The notes under the pieces were generated by a model that was not told the origin of the DNA, searched no databases, and saw nothing but the letters and a program-made list of their open reading frames with translations. A stretch of 64,000 nt of DNA from a phage, in the NCBI GenBank assembly GCA_009015555.1, contig GCA_009015555.1_3613.1; one strand, written 5' to 3'. Shown piece by piece: positions 22,153 through 60,015 of this stretch (position 1 is its first letter; every line of letters starts with the position of its first letter). A program made the translations under genes and the position numbers.

Positions 22153-23808
22153 ATGGCTAAACCAAAGGACCCTATTTACGTTTGGGCTGCTGCCGACGTA
22201 AACCTTCCAGGCACGGGTCGTCCTAACAAATCAAAACCTATTGACGACTTGCTCGCCAAGGGTTACGATAAAGGACAAAAGCCAGCAGCAGAAGAGTTCA
22301 ACTATATCCTGAATATGTCCTCTGCCTGGGTTAACTGGATCGTCAACGAGAAGTTTCCAGAGCTTGAGGCAGAAATCGCCCGGCTCTTGGCAGAACTTGA
22401 AAACCGCATCAACCAGCAGTTGGCTGTTATCCGTCAGGATATTGCCCAACTGAAGCAAGATGTCGCAGACCTTCGTCGGTATGTCGATCAGAAGGTTCAA
22501 GAACTGAAGCAAGAAATCCAAGGCGTCCGAAACGACCTGAACAAACTGCGTCAAGACTTTGATGCTGCGATTGCTCAAGTCAACGGACGAATTGATGACC
22601 TTGAGCCACGCCTTGTTCCAATCGGTGCCGTTATCCCTTGGCCTGGGGCTACAGTCCCTAACGGCTGGTTGGAGTGTAACGGCCAGGTGTTTAATACCGG
22701 GACAAACCCTAAGCTGTATGGAGTCTTGGGGCGTAACGTTGTTCCTGACTACCGTGGTCTCTTCCTGCGCGGCTGGGCACACGGCTCCGGTGCTAACGAT
22801 CCTGATGCTGGTCGTGCTCTCGGTTCTGTTCAGGGTGACGCCATCCGTAACATCACGGGTTACTTCCCTGCGGATATCGGTCAGTCAGGCTGGATCGGTC
22901 GTTACGTTGGTGGTGTGTTCCGGGACGATGGCGCACTGACCTCTGGTGACCAAGGATCTCGTAGTGGTGAAGTACGTAAGTATAGCCTCGATGCTTCCCG
23001 CCAGGTCCCAACGGCCCCGGAAAACCGTCCGAAGAACGTCGCGGTTATGTACATCATCAAGACTGACCAGGCACAATCCTCCGGAGGCAACTCACCAACG
23101 GCGATCGTCGTCTCTCCAGACACAATCACCAACCGTGTAGGATACACCGTCAAAGCGACTGCGAGTGTACTCCCTGCTTCCATCGCAGGTCAATACCCTG
23201 TAACATGGTCTACTCAAAATGCTGCGGTGGCAACGGTTGATGGTTCTGGCAACATCCGCCTTGTAGGGCCGGGTGAAACCAACATCATCGCTTCCATCTC
23301 TACCGGGATGAACGTAGCGATCCGTGTGACGAGCTATTCTGTTCTGACCAGCATCTCCATTGCTGATCCGGGCCAGATTCCGGTCACAGAATCGAAGATG
23401 CTGGTTGTTACCAAAAACCCGGGGAGCGCGAACGAACCTCTGCAATTCCTGTCAAATAACTCCGGTGTTGCGACTGTGAACGACGCAGGTTACGTAACTG
23501 GTGTTTCCCCGGGAAGTGCCACAATCACGGTTCGTGGTACTCTTTCCGGAGTGTCATCAACTCGTTCAGTGACTATTATCCCTGAGCAAGTGGAGGAGAG
23601 CGTACAGGACAACCGTCTCGGTGCGGTAGGATCTTACATCCCACCCGGCAACGAAATCAGTTGGACTTTCCAAGCCCCTCAAGGTTGTGCTCTGACAGGT
23701 ATCATCGTACAAGACGTCGGGTCCAACTCCGCCGACAACATCGGTGGTGTTTATTACAAACCGATCCAGAAGAAAGTTAACGGCGTCTGGGTCACGATCA
23801 CGGGGTAA
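22153..23808 (+). CDS. tail fibre protein with phage tail-collar domain and Ig-like (Big_2-type) repeats
   Basis: Start at ATG 22153 (RBS GAGGAG); N-terminal KPAAEEFNYILN fibre motif, coiled coil, collar motif PWPGATVPNGWLECNGQ...YGVLG, then repeated VTWSTQNAAVATVDGSGNI-type modules. Confidence 0.65.
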   Translation: MAKPKDPIYVWAAADVNLPGTGRPNKSKPIDDLLAKGYDKGQKPAAEEFNYILNMSSAWVNWIVNEKFPELEAEIARLLAELENRINQQLAVIRQDIAQLKQDVADLRRYVDQKVQELKQEIQGVRNDLNKLRQDFDAAIAQVNGRIDDLEPRLVPIGAVIPWPGATVPNGWLECNGQVFNTGTNPKLYGVLGRNVVPDYRGLFLRGWAHGSGANDPDAGRALGSVQGDAIRNITGYFPADIGQSGWIGRYVGGVFRDDGALTSGDQGSRSGEVRKYSLDASRQVPTAPENRPKNVAVMYIIKTDQAQSSGGNSPTAIVVSPDTITNRVGYTVKATASVLPASIAGQYPVTWSTQNAAVATVDGSGNIRLVGPGETNIIASISTGMNVAIRVTSYSVLTSISIADPGQIPVTESKMLVVTKNPGSANEPLQFLSNNSGVATVNDAGYVTGVSPGSATITVRGTLSGVSSTRSVTIIPEQVEESVQDNRLGAVGSYIPPGNEISWTFQAPQGCALTGIIVQDVGSNSADNIGGVYYKPIQKKVNGVWVTITG

Positions 23809-23813
23809 TTAAC

Positions 23814-24329
23814 ATGCGTATGAATAACTTCAAACACTACAACCCGAAGGCGAAAGCCTTCGGGGACGGTGTTCAATATTTTTCTGATGACAAGGGCCGT
23901 GATTTTTACGAGAGTCTCGGCCTGTTTACCAAGAAATATGCGGTCCTTTTCGATGAGTTCGGAATGGTCCGCTTCTTGGTCAAGTCTGTGGATATTTCTA
24001 TGACTTATCCATTGGGCCTGTCTATTTCTGACCTGAACAGCATCCCAAAGGACTTCGACATCATGAAGGGGCCTTGGATGTTCGATGGGAAGAAAATTAC
24101 CAAGGTGGACTTCGACTTGGCTATCGGAACTGCCAAGCGTAAGAAAGCCATCATGGGGTCTCTGTCCAGCCAGATCACACCATTGGCTGATGCAGTGGGA
24201 CTGGGTGAAGCAACAGAAGAGGAGATTGAGAAATATAATGCTCTTCTGAAACTTCGTGTTAAGCTAAATCGGATCTCTGATGACACTCCCGCGAGTGAAA
24301 TTGATTGGTCTGAGTTCACCGCTGCATAA
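23814..24329 (+). CDS. tail fibre assembly protein
   Basis: 171 aa; C-terminal ITPLADAVGLGEATEEE...LLKLRVKLNRISDDTPASEIDW matches conserved tail-fibre-assembly C-terminal region. Confidence 0.55.
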   Translation: MRMNNFKHYNPKAKAFGDGVQYFSDDKGRDFYESLGLFTKKYAVLFDEFGMVRFLVKSVDISMTYPLGLSISDLNSIPKDFDIMKGPWMFDGKKITKVDFDLAIGTAKRKKAIMGSLSSQITPLADAVGLGEATEEEIEKYNALLKLRVKLNRISDDTPASEIDWSEFTAA

Positions 24330-24337
24330 CCTTTCAG

Positions 24338-24357
24338 GCCGGGTATTTGCCCGGCCC
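24338..24357 (+). promoter_or_regulatory. intergenic hairpin (GGCCGGG-TATTTG-CCCGGCC)
   Basis: Inverted repeat between fibre-assembly gene and membrane-protein gene; no T-tract. Confidence 0.3.
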
Positions 24358-24370
24358 CAGGAGAACACAC

Positions 24371-24709
24371 ATGGCTCTTGATATTATGTTGATTCTGAAG
24401 TCTCTTTGGGGTTTGGTGACTTTCCTTCTGTTGGGGGTACTCAAAATCTTTTATTCCGACTTCAAGAAAATGCAGGAGAAGCAGGACGCTCTTGAAAAAG
24501 ATCTGATTCGGCTTCGTGGTGAGATGGTCAGCAAAGATAGTATTGATGACATCCTGGATCGTAAGATCAAGCATATCACCGACACTATTGGCGACATTCG
24601 TGCCGACATCACTGACATGCGGAAAGAGGCCAAAGAAGAGACTAACGCTCTTCAGAAGGACATCCGCTCCGTACTTAACGTCATGTTGGAGAGTCGTCGC
24701 AACAAATGA
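24371..24709 (+). CDS. membrane-anchored coiled-coil protein
   Basis: Track ORF 24347..24709; ATG 24371 with AGGAGA; N-terminal TM helix then heptad-rich region. Confidence 0.5.
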   Translation: MALDIMLILKSLWGLVTFLLLGVLKIFYSDFKKMQEKQDALEKDLIRLRGEMVSKDSIDDILDRKIKHITDTIGDIRADITDMRKEAKEETNALQKDIRSVLNVMLESRRNK

Positions 24710-25164
24710 TCACGTCCATTATTTTTGGACTCTGCTTCGTCATCCTGGCAACTCGCCCGGATGCCGGGGCCAAGATTATGGCGGGGCTTGGCCTCGCCTA
24801 TCTTGTTCTCGAAAACCTGATGTTTTGGTTTTTCAGCGGGGCCGAGTTCTTCGACATCACGCTGTACTTTACCACAGCTTGGGCATTGGATTCAATACTT
24901 TTATTTGCCGTGGCACTCTTTGTCCGAGGGTATCGTCAGGTCGCTGTTTTGGCGCTGGCCCTGCCTCTGATGCTGGTACAAGTATTCGCAATCCAATATC
25001 CAATCTTATTCCCCGATTGGGTTTATTCCTTCGCCGTACAGGATGCACACAGGTATTTCATCGAGGTGTTTATCTTCGTCTATTCCTGGAAGGACAATAC
25101 AGTCTCCGAGTGGCTCAGAACAGGAACCGTTCTGGCACTTGTTATTGTTGCCCATCTGGTGTGA
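24706..25164 (+). CDS. polytopic membrane protein (about 4 TM)
   Basis: 152-aa hydrophobic ORF; start overlaps upstream stop (ATGA). Confidence 0.5.
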   Translation: MITSIIFGLCFVILATRPDAGAKIMAGLGLAYLVLENLMFWFFSGAEFFDITLYFTTAWALDSILLFAVALFVRGYRQVAVLALALPLMLVQVFAIQYPILFPDWVYSFAVQDAHRYFIEVFIFVYSWKDNTVSEWLRTGTVLALVIVAHLV

Positions 25165-25187
25165 CGCATTGATAATGAAGGTGTTCT

Positions 25188-25451
25188 ATGCTAAAATTCT
25201 TCAAAGACCTCGTAACTTCCCCCATCGAACCTGACAAGGCTTCCCACACGAAGTTCTGGTCAAACGTGGGTATGGCGGCTATGACGGCAGTTTTCCTCTG
25301 GTACGGCTTCAACAACACCCTCCCGGAGTGGTATGTTTGGGTTTATGCACCCACAGTAGTAGCACCTCACCTTCTGAGTGACCTCATCAATCTTCGTTGG
25401 GGTATTGCCAAGAAAGAGTCGGAAGTTTCCAACAACGAAGAATCCAAATAA
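25188..25451 (+). CDS. holin-like small membrane protein
   Basis: 87 aa; one or two TM helices; charged C-terminal tail EVSNNEESK; RBS GAAGGTG. Confidence 0.4.
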   Translation: MLKFFKDLVTSPIEPDKASHTKFWSNVGMAAMTAVFLWYGFNNTLPEWYVWVYAPTVVAPHLLSDLINLRWGIAKKESEVSNNEESK

Positions 25452-25463
25452 GAGGAGATTCGC

Positions 25464-28400
25464 GTGTCATCCAATACTGATATCATTGCCCTGTTGAGCA
25501 GCGATGCTGACAAGGCAGTTGACCAGATCATCGAAGACTCCAAACGTCTTCACATCGTGGTCAACGGGACGGGCACCGAGCAGGCTGTTGCAGAGGATGG
25601 GAGCTTGCTCCCGTCTGTTCGCAAAGCGCTGATCGACAACCTGTATTTCAAAACCCCACCTCTTCCCTGGAGAAACGGTGGGTCTGTCAACGAGTTCAAC
25701 CAGCTTTACTCCTTCACCGACGTAAGCGGGAACACCACTTGGTGGTATGCGCCCGGAGCTACGGTATCAAACCCGGTTGTGATGCGTGACAGCCCGATCA
25801 ATGACGGCAAGTTCAAGGTTTTCTTGGACAAAACCAACATCGCCGATATCTATGCCCCTCTGAACTCTCCGAACTTCGTCGGTAACCCCCGTGTGCCTAC
25901 CCCGGCCCCTGGCGACAACAGCCAAACCGTCCCGACAACCGGGTGGGTTCAGTCAGAGATGCAGGACCTGGAAGACCAGATCATTGCCTCTATGAAGGGT
26001 GATTTCGAAAACATCACCGTCCGTAACGATGCCGTTCTCAAAGACACGTATATCAGCGGTGAGTTCATTGTCACCAGTGATAAGTTGTCCGCTGCCAGCG
26101 CCGAAGCAACCTTCCGTCGTATTCGTGTGGTCGGCACCGCAGACAATACTGAGATCGCTTTTGAGCAGAACACCGCACCTCCAGCGGGGGCGAGCACAAA
26201 GACTAACATCAAGCCGTACACGATGTCAACAGGCATCTTGACGATTGACCAGTTGAAAGGAAAATCTGCCCAGATTGGTGATGTTGCTGTTGCCACGGAC
26301 TCCCTGAATGTCGATGGGTACATGCGTGGGGATTACCTGCATCTGGAAGGTAACAACCGAAACAGCACAACCCGCCCTCAGTTGATCGTTGATGGTATTG
26401 CAGAGATCAATACGCTGCGGGTGACTGGAACCATCGAGGGTGTAAAAGCTGATGTTGATGGCTTGGATATTCATCCTCGTAGTGTTATCATCGACGAAGG
26501 TTTGACGGTTGGCAAAGATACCTCCCTGACAGGAAAGCTGACTGTCGGCGGTACAACCAAGGTGAATAACCTGGAGGTTACTGGAACCCTGTCTGGTGTT
26601 GCTATCAGTGTTGACGGTAAAGACATCAAGCCCCGCTCTGTTAACACCGGGAACTTGGTTGCTACTGGCAACGTGCAGATCAGTGGGACGACCACTGCAA
26701 CCGGGAAGATCACAACTCAAGATCTTGAAGTGCTTGGCACACTGACAGCTAACCTCGACCTGTCCGGGTCGGATCTGAGTGTTGATAATATCAACGTTGC
26801 AGAAACCGCGACAATAAAGGATTTGGTGGTTACCGGAAAAACAACCGGGGTCAAAGGTGACGTTGATGGAACCTTGATCAAGCCTTCTTCTGTTCAGGCA
26901 ACGGGCCTTGTGTCAGCAGGTTCATTGTCTACCAATGCAAATGCCTCTATCGGGGGTAACCTGACGGTGACTGGAGAGTTCCGTCCCGCCAGCATGGAAA
27001 CAGGTGCAGTTGAGGCAGATAGTCTGGTTGTTAATGGTAACATTTCCCAGACGACAGGAACAACCTCTGTAGTCAACCTGGTTGTCACAGGAACGACAAC
27101 TGGCGTAACAGCCGATGTCAATGGTGACGACATTTTGCCTCGCTCCGTGACTACTACTGCGGGGGTTAAAGTCGGAACCACCCTCGACGTAACTGGAAAG
27201 ACTACCCTCGGAGATGTTGATTTCACTGGGGTTGTTACCGGGCTTGAACTTGATCTTTCTCAAAAGAACGTGACAGTTAAGTCAATTGCTGCTGTAGATC
27301 CTTCTGCATTTGGGGATGTGACGACAGATAATCTGACCAACAGCGAGAAGATCATCACTCAAGACATCCAAGTTCTGGGTGATATTCTGGATGCTGCGGG
27401 GAATCCTGTCAACACCTTTGATGTTACAGGCAAAGATATTCTGCCAAACAGTGTTCAATCTGCGACGTTTATTCGCGGAAAAACTCTGGACATCAGTGAC
27501 GGTTCCACCCTCCGTGGCCCTGTCGAGTTCCGTAACGGGCTGACAGTAACTCTTGGAGACATCATGTCGCCCCAAGGGAAGGCAACGTTCAACGATGTAC
27601 AGGTCAATGGTGCATTGACGGACGCTAACGGCAACGTCATCGGCTCCGTTGAAAGCATCAAGGGCAAGGACATTGAACCACGCTCCGTTGTGGCTACCGT
27701 GTCTGTACAGGCCCCTCGTCTCCAATCAACTGGGGATATTTTGGGCCAGAGCGCGACAATCACCAATAACGTCTCTGCGGGGACCTTGGGTGTTTCCGGG
27801 TTGACAAACCTGGCAGAAACTCGTGTGAATGCGAAGCTAACAGGGCAATCCACAGAGTTCGAAACTCTGCTCCTGAAGCGCGTTGCTGGTCAAGATACAC
27901 CTCGCTTGGTTGTGCAGGGGGATTCAGATCTCCAGGGGGACCTGAACGTCTCGGGGACCATTACCGGGATTGTTGACCTGACGGCTCAAGATATCCGTAT
28001 GAACAGCCTTGTGCTCGCCGAGGATCTTTCTGCAAGGAATATTACAGGATCAGGCACGGTTCAGGGCGCTAATGGAATTTTCGGCCAGTCTTCCCAGCCC
28101 ACCACCCAGTACGGTTTGCAGTCTCTTTCCAGCGCTAAGGTAGATAAAAACCTCGATGTTGGAGGAAACTTGCGGGTAACTGGGGCCATTACCGGAAGTA
28201 TGGACTTCACAGGGAAGGATATTACCCCACGGAGTGTCGCGGCGTCAGCCGGAATCGGGGCCGTGGATATCACGGCATCCGGCACGACAACGACGAAGGA
28301 CCTTGTGGTCACCGGGACGACAAGTTTTGCGGGAGACAGCGTTTTCAATGCAGGCCAGGTTAAGTCCAAGTTGTTCACCGTTGACATTGGTACTGATATC

Positions 28401-56381: not shown

Positions 56382-56577
56382 CAGTTTCGAAACAGTAGAA
56401 GCCCTCGCATACCGTGCCGTCTTGGCGGGTAAAGTTGACGATGACCTCATCGTCATCGGCGTCAACAGAGACTACGACGCCCTTATCCCCCGGACTAACC
56501 CCGTCGAGGCTATAATCTTCCAGATTTTCCGGATTGAAGATAACCTTTTCGCCTACCGCTACCAGTTTGTTGCTCAT
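56359..56577 (-). CDS. hypothetical acidic protein
   Basis: 72-aa ORF with RBS GGAGGTGAGG; ATGA overlap with helicase stop. Confidence 0.5.
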   Translation of the reverse strand: MSNKLVAVGEKVIFNPENLEDYSLDGVSPGDKGVVVSVDADDDEVIVNFTRQDGTVCEGFYCFETDVEVCGD

Positions 56578-57935
56578 ACCTCACCTCCAAAAATTTCAGG
56601 GAATGTCTCATGATAGAACTTACGGACACCTTGGTCAACAATAATGTCCTTCACACGTAGGCGCTTCATCAGGCGAAGACCTTCGGTGCTCGTCGCTCGG
56701 GACAGCATAACATAGGCTTGGCCCGGCGTGAAGGTGCCGAAACCTAAATCAATGTTCACTTTACCCAGCGTCAGGCCCTGTGCTTTGTGTCCGGTGATAG
56801 CATAGCCCAATTTGAACGGGAACTGCAAGTATTTCCCGATCTCTTTGTCAACCAGTACGGTCTGCTTCTCCATCACCTTGACAGTCTGCTTGGTGCCGTC
56901 TTCCAGTTCGATCTCCTTTTCAACCTGGACCATCTTTTCTTCCGGGACCTGTGTCACGTTGGTCCACTCGTACTTGCCGATGTGGATCGGCTTTCCGTCA
57001 ATGTCCACGATGACAAAAGTCTTGGCGATTTTCTTGATGATCCCCACCGTACCGTTGACGTAATCTGGCTCCTTTTTCTTCTGGTCGTTGTCGTTAACAA
57101 CAATCATGACCTTCAGACCTTCTTTCAGGTTCAGAACTTCGTTGACCGGACGCTCCGGGAACTCGCCCGAGATCTTGGCTTCGAACACATGAGGCTGGGC
57201 CTTGATCTTCTCAAACTCCCGCTGGTTGATTTCCTCTGCGAGTTTGTTGGTGGTCGTTAAAGTCACCGCCCCTGGCAGGGCCGGGCCGAAACAGTGTTGG
57301 TTGAAGTAATCAACCGCCGCCCCGACGTTATTACCCACACGGATGTTGTTCAGGTGTTGAGCGAACACAGGATCAGACTGGCGGTGTACCTTCGGAAGAT
57401 ACGCATTGGTAAAATCCAGTTGGTTCCAAATATCCGAACCGAACGGGATTTCATTGCCGTGCAGTTCACGGAACATCGCCGTCTCTTCGCGCTTCAGAAC
57501 AGGCTTGATCTGGAAACCGTCGCCAAACATGATGACCTGAAGGCCACCGAAAGGCTTGTTTACCTTGCGGTGATAACGCAGCTTCATGTCGATCTCCCGC
57601 AGCTTGTCGCTACGAATCATGGAGATTTCGTCGAACACGATAGCGTCCAGCGCATTAGATGCCATCAGCATCGCAGGCTTCTTGGACTTCGCTTTGTAAT
57701 CTTCCTTGGTGGTAACACCAAACGTCAGACCAAAAGCCTTGTGAGCGGTGATCCCTGAAATGTTCAGCGCCGCAATCCCTGTCGGTGCAACGAACAGGAA
57801 ACTGTCAGCGAAGAACTCACGCAGAGTGGCAATCATCAAGCTCTTGCCAGATCCACCTGGCCCGGTGATGAACACGTTATCACCCGCCATGATGGCTCGC
57901 ATTGCTTCTTCGTTACCAATTACTGTTTTACCCAT
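56574..57935 (-). CDS. SF1B DNA helicase (PIF1/RecD/Dda-like)
   Basis: 453 aa; Walker A GPGGSGKS, Walker B VFDEISM. Confidence 0.8.
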   Translation of the reverse strand: MGKTVIGNEEAMRAIMAGDNVFITGPGGSGKSLMIATLREFFADSFLFVAPTGIAALNISGITAHKAFGLTFGVTTKEDYKAKSKKPAMLMASNALDAIVFDEISMIRSDKLREIDMKLRYHRKVNKPFGGLQVIMFGDGFQIKPVLKREETAMFRELHGNEIPFGSDIWNQLDFTNAYLPKVHRQSDPVFAQHLNNIRVGNNVGAAVDYFNQHCFGPALPGAVTLTTTNKLAEEINQREFEKIKAQPHVFEAKISGEFPERPVNEVLNLKEGLKVMIVVNDNDQKKKEPDYVNGTVGIIKKIAKTFVIVDIDGKPIHIGKYEWTNVTQVPEEKMVQVEKEIELEDGTKQTVKVMEKQTVLVDKEIGKYLQFPFKLGYAITGHKAQGLTLGKVNIDLGFGTFTPGQAYVMLSRATSTEGLRLMKRLRVKDIIVDQGVRKFYHETFPEIFGGEV

Positions 57936-58129: not shown

Positions 58130-58318
58130 TTAATCGTGAGCCAAACAAGCAGTGATTACAGTTGCCAAGAGGAACATCAAGGCTCCCCACCCCATCAAAT
58201 ACGGGACCTGGGATGAGAACTGTGCCATCATCTCAGGGAAAAAGAACTGTGCGCCCCAGCGGGCCGGGAATATCCAAACCAGCATGAATGTAATGAACAG
58301 AATGATAAGATTTCTCAT
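58130..58318 (-). CDS. small membrane protein (2 TM), holin-like by size and position
   Basis: 62 aa, hydrophobic; RBS AGAGGAAAAGG; start overlaps stop of hydrolase gene. Confidence 0.45.
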   Translation of the reverse strand: MRNLIILFITFMLVWIFPARWGAQFFFPEMMAQFSSQVPYLMGWGALMFLLATVITACLAHD

Positions 58319-58848
58319 GTCGCCTTTTCCTCTTTTGGTTTATAAAACACATGGTAGCCGATAGTGGCTGTTTTCGTAAAGAACTTTCTCCAGTATGGCT
58401 TGACCTTCTTCGTGTGGAAGTGAGTCGCACCATGTGTTGGGTCCAGCTTGTTGTACAATACCTCATTATTCCGGATCTTGTAAAGGAATCTCGCAATATC
58501 TTGTGCGACCATCCAAGACTCCCGATCCCTGACTGCATAGCCGTTTCTTGCCATTGTCCAGGAAAATTGTGCAGATTGATACACAACCTTCCTGACTGAC
58601 CCGGGATACCCGTCGTGCTTTAGCCTGTTCAGAGTAACAAATCCAACCGCCATCTGTCCACTGATATTTTCCCCACGCGACTCGAAATAAATATTGCAGG
58701 CCAGTGCGTTGACCGACGAGTCATTGTTTTTGCACACATGAACAACCGGGGCGAGCTTTTTCTTCGGTGCGTTATCTTTTGCCAAAGCAGATACTGGGGC
58801 GAAAGATAAAGCGCTGGCTGCGAATAGTGCAGCGATGCTCTTTTTCAT
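58315..58848 (-). CDS. secreted cell-wall hydrolase, SleB-type
   Basis: 177 aa; N-terminal signal peptide MKKSIAALFAASALSFAPVSALA; NIYFESRGE...GQMAVGFVTLNRL motif of SleB-type hydrolases. Confidence 0.6.
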   Translation of the reverse strand: MKKSIAALFAASALSFAPVSALAKDNAPKKKLAPVVHVCKNNDSSVNALACNIYFESRGENISGQMAVGFVTLNRLKHDGYPGSVRKVVYQSAQFSWTMARNGYAVRDRESWMVAQDIARFLYKIRNNEVLYNKLDPTHGATHFHTKKVKPYWRKFFTKTATIGYHVFYKPKEEKAT

Positions 58849-58897: not shown

Positions 58898-59299
58898 TCA
58901 AGCCTTTTTGGAGGCTTGAGCGAGAACTCCCTTCTTAACATCTTCCCAAAGAGAATTGAGGAAAGGGTCGTTGGTGATCACGTCGGCATACCAAGGGCCG
59001 TAGATACGGTACACGGAATCGACGGTGATCGCGTACAAATGCCCAGAATGGACGGCAAGGCCAGTCACGTAGCCAGTACGCACTTGGGTCCCATCCTTAC
59101 CTGTCTTCCGGCGCTTCGCCTCATTGAACTCGATATAACCTGTCAATGTGACAATCTTCTCCGGGACCTGAAGATCCGGGAGTTTTTCGTGGCTAAGGAC
59201 CTGATTCCCAGATTTACATCCCTCCAGGCACAGATTTCCGCCGTACTTCTTCCCGTACTTACGGGCAAACTCAGCCATTTTGATCGTGGACAATTTCAC
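58898..59299 (-). CDS. hypothetical protein
   Basis: 133-aa track ORF (GTG start; alternative ATG at 59278 would give 8-nt overlap with macro gene). Confidence 0.45.
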   Translation of the reverse strand: MKLSTIKMAEFARKYGKKYGGNLCLEGCKSGNQVLSHEKLPDLQVPEKIVTLTGYIEFNEAKRRKTGKDGTQVRTGYVTGLAVHSGHLYAITVDSVYRIYGPWYADVITNDPFLNSLWEDVKKGVLAQASKKA

Positions 59300-59801
59300 T
59301 CTCCTTCAGAACATAAATGGTCACATCGAAGTCTCTCAGGCGACCTTCAATCATCCGAGATATGATACCCCAATCGCCACCTGCGAGTCCAGCCCCTATT
59401 TTTGGTAGCCCGATACGAAGGTCTTGGGTACTCATATCCAGAGTACGACACTTGGCATGGAGAGATACCGCCATTGCAGACAGGGCCGAACGCAATGCCC
59501 AGTAATCGAGGTCCATCTTACCCTCTCTGCGCCCGGTGAAGGTGTATTGACCGTACAGATTGTAAACCAGTAAACCATTTTTGCAGAAGGCCGACGACAA
59601 AGTTCCCAGTTTAGCCCGATCACCACGGGTGGTCATTTGGTCTGCCGTCCACGCTTCCGGAAAAGCTGACGCAATCTTTGGGGCAATACCAGACTTCATG
59701 GTATTCATGCAGTTACAGCAGTGGGCTATCACGTTTACCTCTCCAGCCTGCGCCGCAGAGATCAGATCGCCCACACGGTATGTCATTTTACCACAAGGCA
59801 T
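59271..59801 (-). CDS. macro-domain-like (ADP-ribose binding or processing) protein
   Basis: Track ORF 59271..59882 trimmed to ATG 59801; VNVIAHCCNCMNTMKSGIAPKIASAFPE near N-terminus and GLAGGDWGII near C-terminus resemble macro-domain motifs. Confidence 0.45.
   Translation of the reverse strand: MPCGKMTYRVGDLISAAQAGEVNVIAHCCNCMNTMKSGIAPKIASAFPEAWTADQMTTRGDRAKLGTLSSAFCKNGLLVYNLYGQYTFTGRREGKMDLDYWALRSALSAMAVSLHAKCRTLDMSTQDLRIGLPKIGAGLAGGDWGIISRMIEGRLRDFDVTIYVLKESEIVHDQNG
59785..59796 (-). promoter_or_regulatory. TTGTGGTAAAAT motif inside 5' end of macro gene (candidate internal promoter)
   Basis: Third exact copy of the 12-mer. Confidence 0.25.
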
Positions 59802-59802
59802 A

Positions 59803-60015
59803 TTAAAGTTCACCCCGCTTCGCCTTCTGGCACATCTGGAGAACGTCATAGCAAGACTGCTTGACGATCCACGGCTCGCCACGGTACAGGGTAATCAGGG
59901 TTCCCTTGCGGTCTTTCCCTTCTACTTCGGTCACCTGCGGGTGAAACTCCCGGATATTTGCAACATCGAGGCAGATTGGTTCTTCAGACGCTAGTTGGTT
60001 CAGGTATACGAACAT
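59803..60015 (-). CDS. hypothetical protein
   Basis: 70-aa ORF with RBS AGGAGGG. Confidence 0.5.
   Translation of the reverse strand: MFVYLNQLASEEPICLDVANIREFHPQVTEVEGKDRKGTLITLYRGEPWIVKQSCYDVLQMCQKAKRGEL

Follow-up and report, generated by a model that had tools for sequence, protein, structure and literature searches.

What does a macrodomain gene do among the DNA replication genes of a phage, and which host defence, if any, might it oppose? The question is raised by a 64,000-nucleotide stretch of phage DNA (contig GCA_009015555.1_3613.1 of NCBI GenBank assembly GCA_009015555.1; this whole stretch is referred to below as the window), in which a minus-strand open reading frame (ORF) at 59271–59801 encodes a single-domain protein of 176 amino acids. 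The initial annotation had placed a macro-domain-like gene, a candidate counter-defence factor, at exactly these coordinates, without naming the strand. The protein is confirmed as a macrodomain by its fold, by profile comparison and by its ADP-ribose-binding loops. As to its role, we tentatively favour, at a probability that we place a little short of even, an Adpp-type phosphatase that would convert ADP-ribose-1''-phosphate (ADPR-1''-phosphate) to ADP-ribose (ADPR), acting in trans with the phage NAD+ pathway NARP1. Thymidine-linked ADP-ribose on DNA is a close rival as the substrate.

The window is a segment of a Certrevirus (Vequintavirinae) genome. Over the 3 kb around the macrodomain gene, its identity is 97.7% with Cronobacter phage CR3 and 97.5% with Pectobacterium phage vB_PcaM_P7_Pc (henceforth P7_Pc), whose macrodomain protein is 99.4% identical to that of the window. 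The gene is the exact counterpart of CR3_gp089 (JQ691612 / NC_017974), labelled 'putative phosphatase' because of similarity to Poa1p, the yeast ADPR-1''-phosphate phosphatase. The gene is already annotated in the GenBank/RefSeq records of CR3, and counter-defence roles for members of the family have been published as preprints.

A search against macro-domain profile hidden Markov models, the check proposed with the initial annotation, gave a divided answer. The Pfam Macro profile (PF01661) scored the window protein at 15.8 bits (E=0.013), under its 22-bit gathering score; relatives from the same family lie above that cut-off (Adpp of Vibrio phage Gary 31.2 bits, Tk.4 of phage T4 27.7 bits and the homologue from phage PAK_P4 22.4 bits). 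PHROG 335, labelled 'phosphatase', on the other hand matched the window protein with E=9.7e-60 and also takes in T4 Tk.4 (E=1.3e-65). Solved macrodomains were found as well. A phmmer search of the PDB returned BT1257 of Bacteroides thetaiotaomicron (3e-8), the macrodomain SCO6735 of Streptomyces coelicolor (2e-7) and Poa1p (8e-5), and a profile of the family matched BT1257 (3e-19), SCO6735 (5e-16), TARG1 (2e-13), Poa1p (3e-9) and DarG (2e-7).

The AF2 model of the protein (pLDDT 92.7, pTM 0.89) adopts the three-layer alpha/beta/alpha macro fold. Among the matches listed by Foldseek from the PDB, all but a few designed hydrolases were macrodomains, with TARG1 (OARD1) first (3e-12), followed by BT1257, DarG (about 7e-10), Poa1p (about 2e-9) and SCO6735, and the best of them had target-normalised TM-scores of 0.75–0.85. 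The loops S-G38-I-A and G136-A-G-L-A-G-G142, which bind ADP-ribose and its diphosphate, align with those of BT1257, SCO6735, TARG1 and Poa1p and are near-invariant in the 127 aligned family sequences over which residue conservation was counted. On these PHROG, PDB and structural matches and on the conserved loops, the macro-domain call stands. The protein is of the ALC1/TARG1-like class, minus the classical catalytic residues of that class.

The gene is genuinely coding and strongly constrained by purifying selection. Compared codon by codon, its dN/dS was 0.056 with the copy in Klebsiella phage KaOmega and 0.073 with that in Cronobacter phage CR9, dS being about 1.25. The family is also large. 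We retrieved 570 homologues at E<=1e-3 from our protein collection, and tblastn found family matches at 2982 places in 2976 of 50,697 phage records, so that the gene is nearly always present as a single copy and is carried by about 6% of sequenced phage genomes. Macro domains as a whole have been reported in about 41% of myoviruses (PMC9503650).

All ten residues that are invariant in the 127 sequences are present in the window protein (N30, G38, D54, G60, G66, N81, Y83, Q85, P133 and W144) and, with its full-length match to PHROG 335, place it in the family of Tk.4 and Adpp. Most of them fall in four motifs, all encoded on the minus strand. The first, H27-C-C-N30-C31 (59709–59723; HxCNC in the family), contains N30 (127/127), equivalent to N27 of SCO6735, and H27 (125/127), equivalent to H23 of Poa1p. 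It is followed by S37-G38-I-A40-P41 (59679–59693; G38 in 127/127, A40 in 126/127), the glycine loop after strand 2 in the ADP-ribose cleft, with the role described for this loop in macro domains (PMC9503650). In N81-L-Y83-G-Q85 (59547–59561), N81, Y83 and Q85 are each found in 127/127. The last motif, P133-K-I-G-A-G-L-A140-G-G-D-W144 (59370–59405), is from the alignments the diphosphate-binding glycine-rich loop, with P133 and W144 invariant.

Q85 sits at the position of the catalytic lysine of TARG1 (K84) and of DarG (K80 in the T. aquaticus protein), and corresponds to the essential Gln85 of SCO6735 (alignments; PMC9411070, Fig. 1B text). A140 occupies the position of the catalytic D125 of TARG1 and of F152 of Poa1p. 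The K84/D125 dyad of TARG1 is therefore replaced by Q85/A140, and on this ground we do not regard the protein as an orthologue of TARG1. A DarG antitoxin was rejected too, given that the protein has no catalytic lysine, no C-terminal DarT-binding domain and no darT gene among its neighbours; the NCBIfam DarG model gave only a local match of 24 bits, against a cut-off of 250 bits. SCO6735 depends on Gln85 and Asn27 to hydrolyse ADP-ribose linked to thymidine on DNA, and its N27S mutant is nearly inactive (PMC9411070). Both residues have invariant equivalents here, Q85 and N30. SCO6735 and BT1257, which of all solved structures match best in sequence, share with the window protein the motifs N-x-x-G-Q and G-x-G-L-A-G-G-x-W; they differ in being cellular proteins of about 25% identity that have HVCND/HICND in place of HxCNC, and Lys34 and Lys89 of SCO6735 are not kept position for position. 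Poa1p, in turn, shares the H-x-C-N-C motif, with H27 at its H23 and the hydroxyl residue T34 at its S30, whereas overall identity is about 20%, the alignment has a gap at Q85 and F152 is replaced by A140. H23, S30 and F152 are the Poa1p residues probed by deposited mutant structures. With Q85 and N30 as in SCO6735 and HxCNC as in Poa1p, the predicted active site combines features of SCO6735 with others of Poa1p.

Poa1p acts downstream of tRNA splicing. An analogous part in RNA repair, downstream of KptA/Tpt1, was set aside since the annotation of CR3, which is as far as this comparison went, lists neither KptA/Tpt1 nor a 2H phosphoesterase.

The closest experimentally characterized relative is Adpp (KNV71_gp137) of Vibrio phage Gary. 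Purified Adpp turns ADPR-1''-phosphate, the product of the aRES defence, into ADPR, and is needed for the three-gene NARP1-AP operon Adps-Adpp-Namat to beat aRES (bioRxiv 10.64898/2026.01.28.702374). We confirmed at the Gary locus that the gene lies between Adps and Namat. The window protein is 39% identical to Gary Adpp over 161 aligned columns (E=4e-30), has the same size and single-domain organization, and shares with it all the family-invariant residues; it is 40% identical to Ceto gp176, which occupies the same operon position as Gary Adpp, and 48% identical (E=6e-49) to the PAK_P4 protein, whose gene lies two genes downstream of Adps-Namat. Its identity to T4 Tk.4 is 29% (E=3e-19), and Gary Adpp and Tk.4 are themselves 35% identical. 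In a neighbour-joining tree, the window protein grouped with Gary Adpp to the exclusion of Tk.4 in 155 of 200 bootstraps (the reverse grouping appeared in 18 of 200), and Tk.4 formed the most divergent branch. These comparisons modestly favour an Adpp-type over a Tk.4-type protein.

By analogy with Gary, the pathway might run as follows. Some hosts carry the RES-domain defence aRES, which phosphorolyses NAD+ to nicotinamide and ADPR-1''-phosphate, and the latter is of no use to the phage NARP1 enzymes Adps and Namat. The macrodomain, a soluble single-domain enzyme expected to bind ADP-ribose, cleave off the substituent on C1'' of the distal ribose and free ADP-ribose, would strip the 1''-phosphate and yield ADPR. 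Adps could then convert ADPR to ADPR-PP, and Namat could join ADPR-PP with nicotinamide to regenerate NAD+. As the macrodomain gene is found among replication genes, away from the NARP1 operon, we propose that it would work in trans. The same active site may also take ADP-ribose off thymidine modified by DarT2, and neither role would preclude the other. The initial annotation had suggested that the protein might process NAD-derived signals; this is in keeping, by homology, with the dephosphorylation by Gary Adpp of ADPR-1''-phosphate, an NAD-derived molecule.

The genomic context of the family gives this proposal partial support. Both lineages, that of the window and that of Gary, carry Adps and Namat, which are present in 24/24 full Certrevirus genomes, P7_Pc included. 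We examined 80 IMG/VR loci with family members, which formed 30 clusters at 70% identity. In seven of the 30, no more than 1.5 kb separated the macrodomain gene from Adps-like and/or Namat/Nampt-like genes, and two of these seven had the Gary-type order Adps-macro-Namat.

Several other observations weigh against coupling to NARP1, or against ADPR-1''-phosphate as the substrate. No NAD+ salvage gene was found within 10 kb of the macrodomain gene in 23 of the 30 clusters, and a search of the 64-kb window detected neither Adps nor Namat. The window stops short of the NARP1 region, so that the presence of NARP1 in this phage is inferred from its relatives. In CR3 about 78 kb separate the macrodomain gene, at 61.7 kb, from NARP1, at 139.5–142.3 kb, and the adjoining genes of the helicase/primase/polymerase region offer no metabolic context. 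While Adpp of Gary is located between Adps and Namat, the window gene is in the replication-gene region, tens of kb away from the expected position of these genes, and it falls outside a NARP1 operon as defined in the Adpp paper, i.e. within two genes of Adps/Namat (bioRxiv 10.64898/2026.01.28.702374). The active site itself lacks the equivalent of F152 of Poa1p and has an invariant glutamine that is missing from Poa1p. Nor does it contain any residue that distinguishes Adpp from Tk.4, the ten invariant residues being identical in the Gary and T4 proteins; because they are common to both, sequence cannot tell the substrate of the window copy. Net charge and isoelectric point were not discriminating either (8.5 for the window protein, 7.8 for Gary, 5.9 for T4 and 4.9 for PAK_P4; 4.5 to 9.3 in the family). 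T4, which carries a member of this family, is not known to have NARP1.

The NARP1-like genes of these and other phages showed some features of their own. In CR3 (139550–142282; positions 23551–26283 of our locus L005), adjacent genes annotated 'ribose-phosphate pyrophosphokinase' and 'nicotinamide phosphoribosyl transferase' resemble Adps and Namat and have equivalents in the 24 Certrevirus genomes. In the Pectobacterium phages phiTE, CB7, DU_PP_I/IV and P7_Pc, HNH endonuclease genes split the Adps/Namat pair, and Namat is annotated as two pieces. One large IMG/VR cluster (26 around L039, among L039–L094; several contigs of 200–370 kb, many from jumbo phages) has the macrodomain gene 0–2 kb downstream of a gene 25–28% identical to Namat, with an Adps/Prs-like gene some 4–6 kb away on its other side; the pair could be Namat/Adps (NARP1) or Nampt/Prs (NARP2-like). 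In Escherichia phage ESCO5 (L013:4499–6462) and Klebsiella phage KP2025 (L014:4500–6459), both of about 150 kb, macrodomain homologues 44–51% identical to the window protein are found directly downstream of a gene for a ComF-like phosphoribosyltransferase (Pfam PRTase_3, 2.7e-41, from the ESCO5 scan only) and one for a weakly matching HAD-like hydrolase. TerC/tellurite-resistance-type genes lie close to these homologues, in a distinct, conserved nucleotide-metabolism neighbourhood.

The strongest competitor to an Adpp-type phosphatase is DNA repair of the type named AdfM, in which the protein would remove ADP-ribose placed by DarT2 on thymidine in phage single-stranded DNA (TNTC motifs), restoring replication and transcription. 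We consider this a real but lesser possibility. Transposon screening with a DarTG2 host picked out T4 Tk.4 (AdfM) alone, and a clean tk.4 knockout sensitises T4 to DarTG2, the enzymology being inferred and not demonstrated (bioRxiv 10.1101/2025.11.20.689424). That a member of the same PHROG has a DNA-related role speaks for this activity in the window protein and, equally, against the NARP1 proposal. Tk.4 shares with the window protein the motifs HxCNC, SG.A, GD..KLG, NLY.Q and P.IGAG..G.W and has the same Gln at the lysine position of TARG1 and DarG, but it lacks 6 residues of the loop that follows this Gln, reads GAGIGKGNW instead of GAGLAGGDW, and is more distant from the window protein than Adpp is. 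The nearest solved relatives by sequence, BT1257 and SCO6735, point in the direction of DNA as well, since SCO6735 cleaves thymidine-linked ADP-ribose on DNA (PMC9411070) and the residues that it needs are invariant here; N30 and Q85 are, however, also found in Gary Adpp and so do not argue for DNA over ADPR-1''-phosphate. Also in favour of DNA repair are the long basic loop after Q85 (R91, R92, K95), similar to the SCO6735 loop proposed as a DNA clamp, the location of the gene among DNA replication genes, and a weak but full-length match to the PADLOC DarG model (1.2e-6). On the other side, the DNA activity of Tk.4 is deduced from genetics, which covers T4 only, our literature search found no biochemistry of a Tk.4-type protein and no data on DarTG2 sensitivity of Vequintavirinae, and the one phage AdfM tested in vitro, PhiKZ gp104, which removes DarT2 ADP-ribose from DNA (PMC13309987), comes from another macro clade, of the Lys type. 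We rejected gp104 as a relative of the window protein, to which it has no pairwise similarity (E=0.1), and it has a catalytic K78 where the window protein has Gln. The name AdfM has in fact been given independently to two unrelated macro clades, that of PhiKZ gp104 (L007:12518–13003; DarG-like, with Lys) and that of T4 Tk.4 (L006:5926–6390; with Gln, SCO6735-like), and the two proteins are not interchangeable as homology references. The proposal in the initial annotation that the protein reverses ADP-ribosylation of DNA thus agrees, by homology only, with the need of T4 for Tk.4 in order to plaque on a DarTG2 host.

Two further possibilities are less likely. The protein could be an eraser of other ADP-ribose adducts, on protein or RNA (e.g. 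uracil-linked, or placed by other host ADP-ribosyltransferase toxins), or a deacetylase of O-acetyl-ADP-ribose, and such a function may have nothing to do with aRES or DarTG2. Macro domains serve varied functions (PMC9503650), protein, DNA and RNA are all substrates of the relatives TARG1 and SCO6735 (PMC9411070; PMC13036486), and some homologues are named 'O-acetyl-ADP-ribose deacetylase' in the sources. Automated names are not tests, though, and no ADP-ribosyltransferase or sirtuin is annotated beside the gene or elsewhere in CR3; the two family members that have been tested point to aRES and DarTG2, and we regard another eraser function as unlikely. Less probable still, and in our view very unlikely, is a non-catalytic binder that would act as a sponge for ADP-ribose-derived immune signals (such as the Thoeris signals gcADPR and His-ADPR) and hydrolyse nothing. 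The ADP-ribose-binding loops are intact, and host effector macro domains do bind such ligands, e.g. the ThsA macro domain and His-ADPR. Against it, the catalytic residues of SCO6735 (N and Q) are invariant across the 127 sequences, Gary Adpp is a proven enzyme, and known Thoeris sponges have unrelated folds. A paper on NARP3 and a preprint on Thoeris and Migulavirinae proved to have no bearing on phage macro proteins. Between the two leading substrates, ADPR-1''-phosphate and thymidine-ADP-ribose DNA, we continue to favour the Adpp-type activity, tentatively and on the strength of sequence relationships and of gene context in the family.

At the level of the locus, the macrodomain gene starts with an ATG at 59801–59799 and ends with a stop codon at 59273–59271. 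The preceding ORF ends at 59805–59803, 1 base ahead of this ATG, and a Shine-Dalgarno-like GGGGTGA (59810–59816, minus strand) is found 8 nt upstream of the ATG. This site falls within the 3' end of the preceding ORF, and for this reason the two genes are probably translationally coupled. An alternative in-frame GTG at 59813, 12 nt further upstream, gives the 180-amino-acid product of some annotations (P7_Pc, cluster P0001), and the longest mechanical ORF begins at a GTG at 59882; the N-termini of homologues point to the ATG or close by, and the ATG start is well supported locally. The following ORF (58898–59278, minus strand) begins at an ATG at 59278, with an 8-nt overlap with the stop region of the macrodomain gene. 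From the 1-base gap before it and the 8-nt overlap after it, the gene is part of a tightly packed leftward operon in the helicase, primase-helicase and DNA polymerase region. A scan for promoters and terminators found 10 promoter-like sites (5.7±2.3 in shuffled sequence) and 11 terminator-like sites (7.6±2.6), not clearly above expectation, and defined no transcription unit.

The neighbours of the macrodomain gene belong to small lineage-specific PHROGs without known function, except for a SleB-type cell wall hydrolase, and show no functional linkage to it. The ORF at 58898–59278 falls in the small PHROG 12555, of unassigned function, with a weak second match to a PHROG labelled methyltransferase (5e-7). 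The hydrolase (58315–58848, minus strand; Pfam Hydrolase_2, 2.6e-22) has a hydrophobic signal-like N-terminus and is located in the replication-gene region; its RefSeq label is 'endolysin', and CR3 has a second annotated endolysin near Rz-like spanins and ribonucleotide reductase genes. The helicase gene (56574–57935, minus strand) is annotated with 1263 nt in CR3 and with 1362 nt in P7_Pc and KaOmega, and the window ORF favours the longer form, with the N-terminus MGKTVIGNEE.

One irregularity was seen in the macrodomain protein of CR3 itself (NC_017974; L001:7272–7802), in which Gln85 is replaced by Arg (NLYGR for NLYGQ). Glutamine is kept in the window, P7_Pc, KaOmega and CR9 and in 127/127 other family sequences, leaving CR3 as the exception. 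The Arg is a sequencing error or a natural variant, and such a variant may be inactive or altered.

Taken as an annotation, this is an ordinary conserved phage macrodomain gene to which a routine and correct function had been assigned. The counter-defence idea is supported as correct in kind by homology, PHROG 335 including both T4 Tk.4 (anti-DarTG2) and Gary Adpp (anti-aRES). What records of Certrevirus and other Vequintavirinae have long called just a 'putative phosphatase' is a member of a family for which two counter-defence roles have lately been demonstrated. The near-universal single copy, together with these two roles within the family, suggests either lineage-specific specialisation or genuine bifunctionality. 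The wider question is whether a macrodomain enzyme can support NARP1 from an unlinked locus, and whether the Adpp and AdfM activities may reside in one protein. More speculatively, and we hold this to be doubtful, PHROG 335 macrodomains could be promiscuous C1''-erasers that both strip ADP-ribose from DarT2-modified thymidine and dephosphorylate ADPR-1''-phosphate, with NARP1, in phages that have it at any genomic location, recycling the ADP-ribose from both reactions into NAD+. Two defence systems that work by unrelated mechanisms would then fall to one small gene. Because the phosphatase could act in trans, the figure of 15% of NARP1 phages, obtained by counting operon adjacency, would greatly understate how common NARP1-AP is. 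For the approximately 6% of sequenced phage genomes with a family member, it would in that case become possible to predict resistance to both aRES and DarTG2, a matter of interest when phages are selected for therapy or biocontrol of Cronobacter, Pectobacterium, Klebsiella and E. coli.

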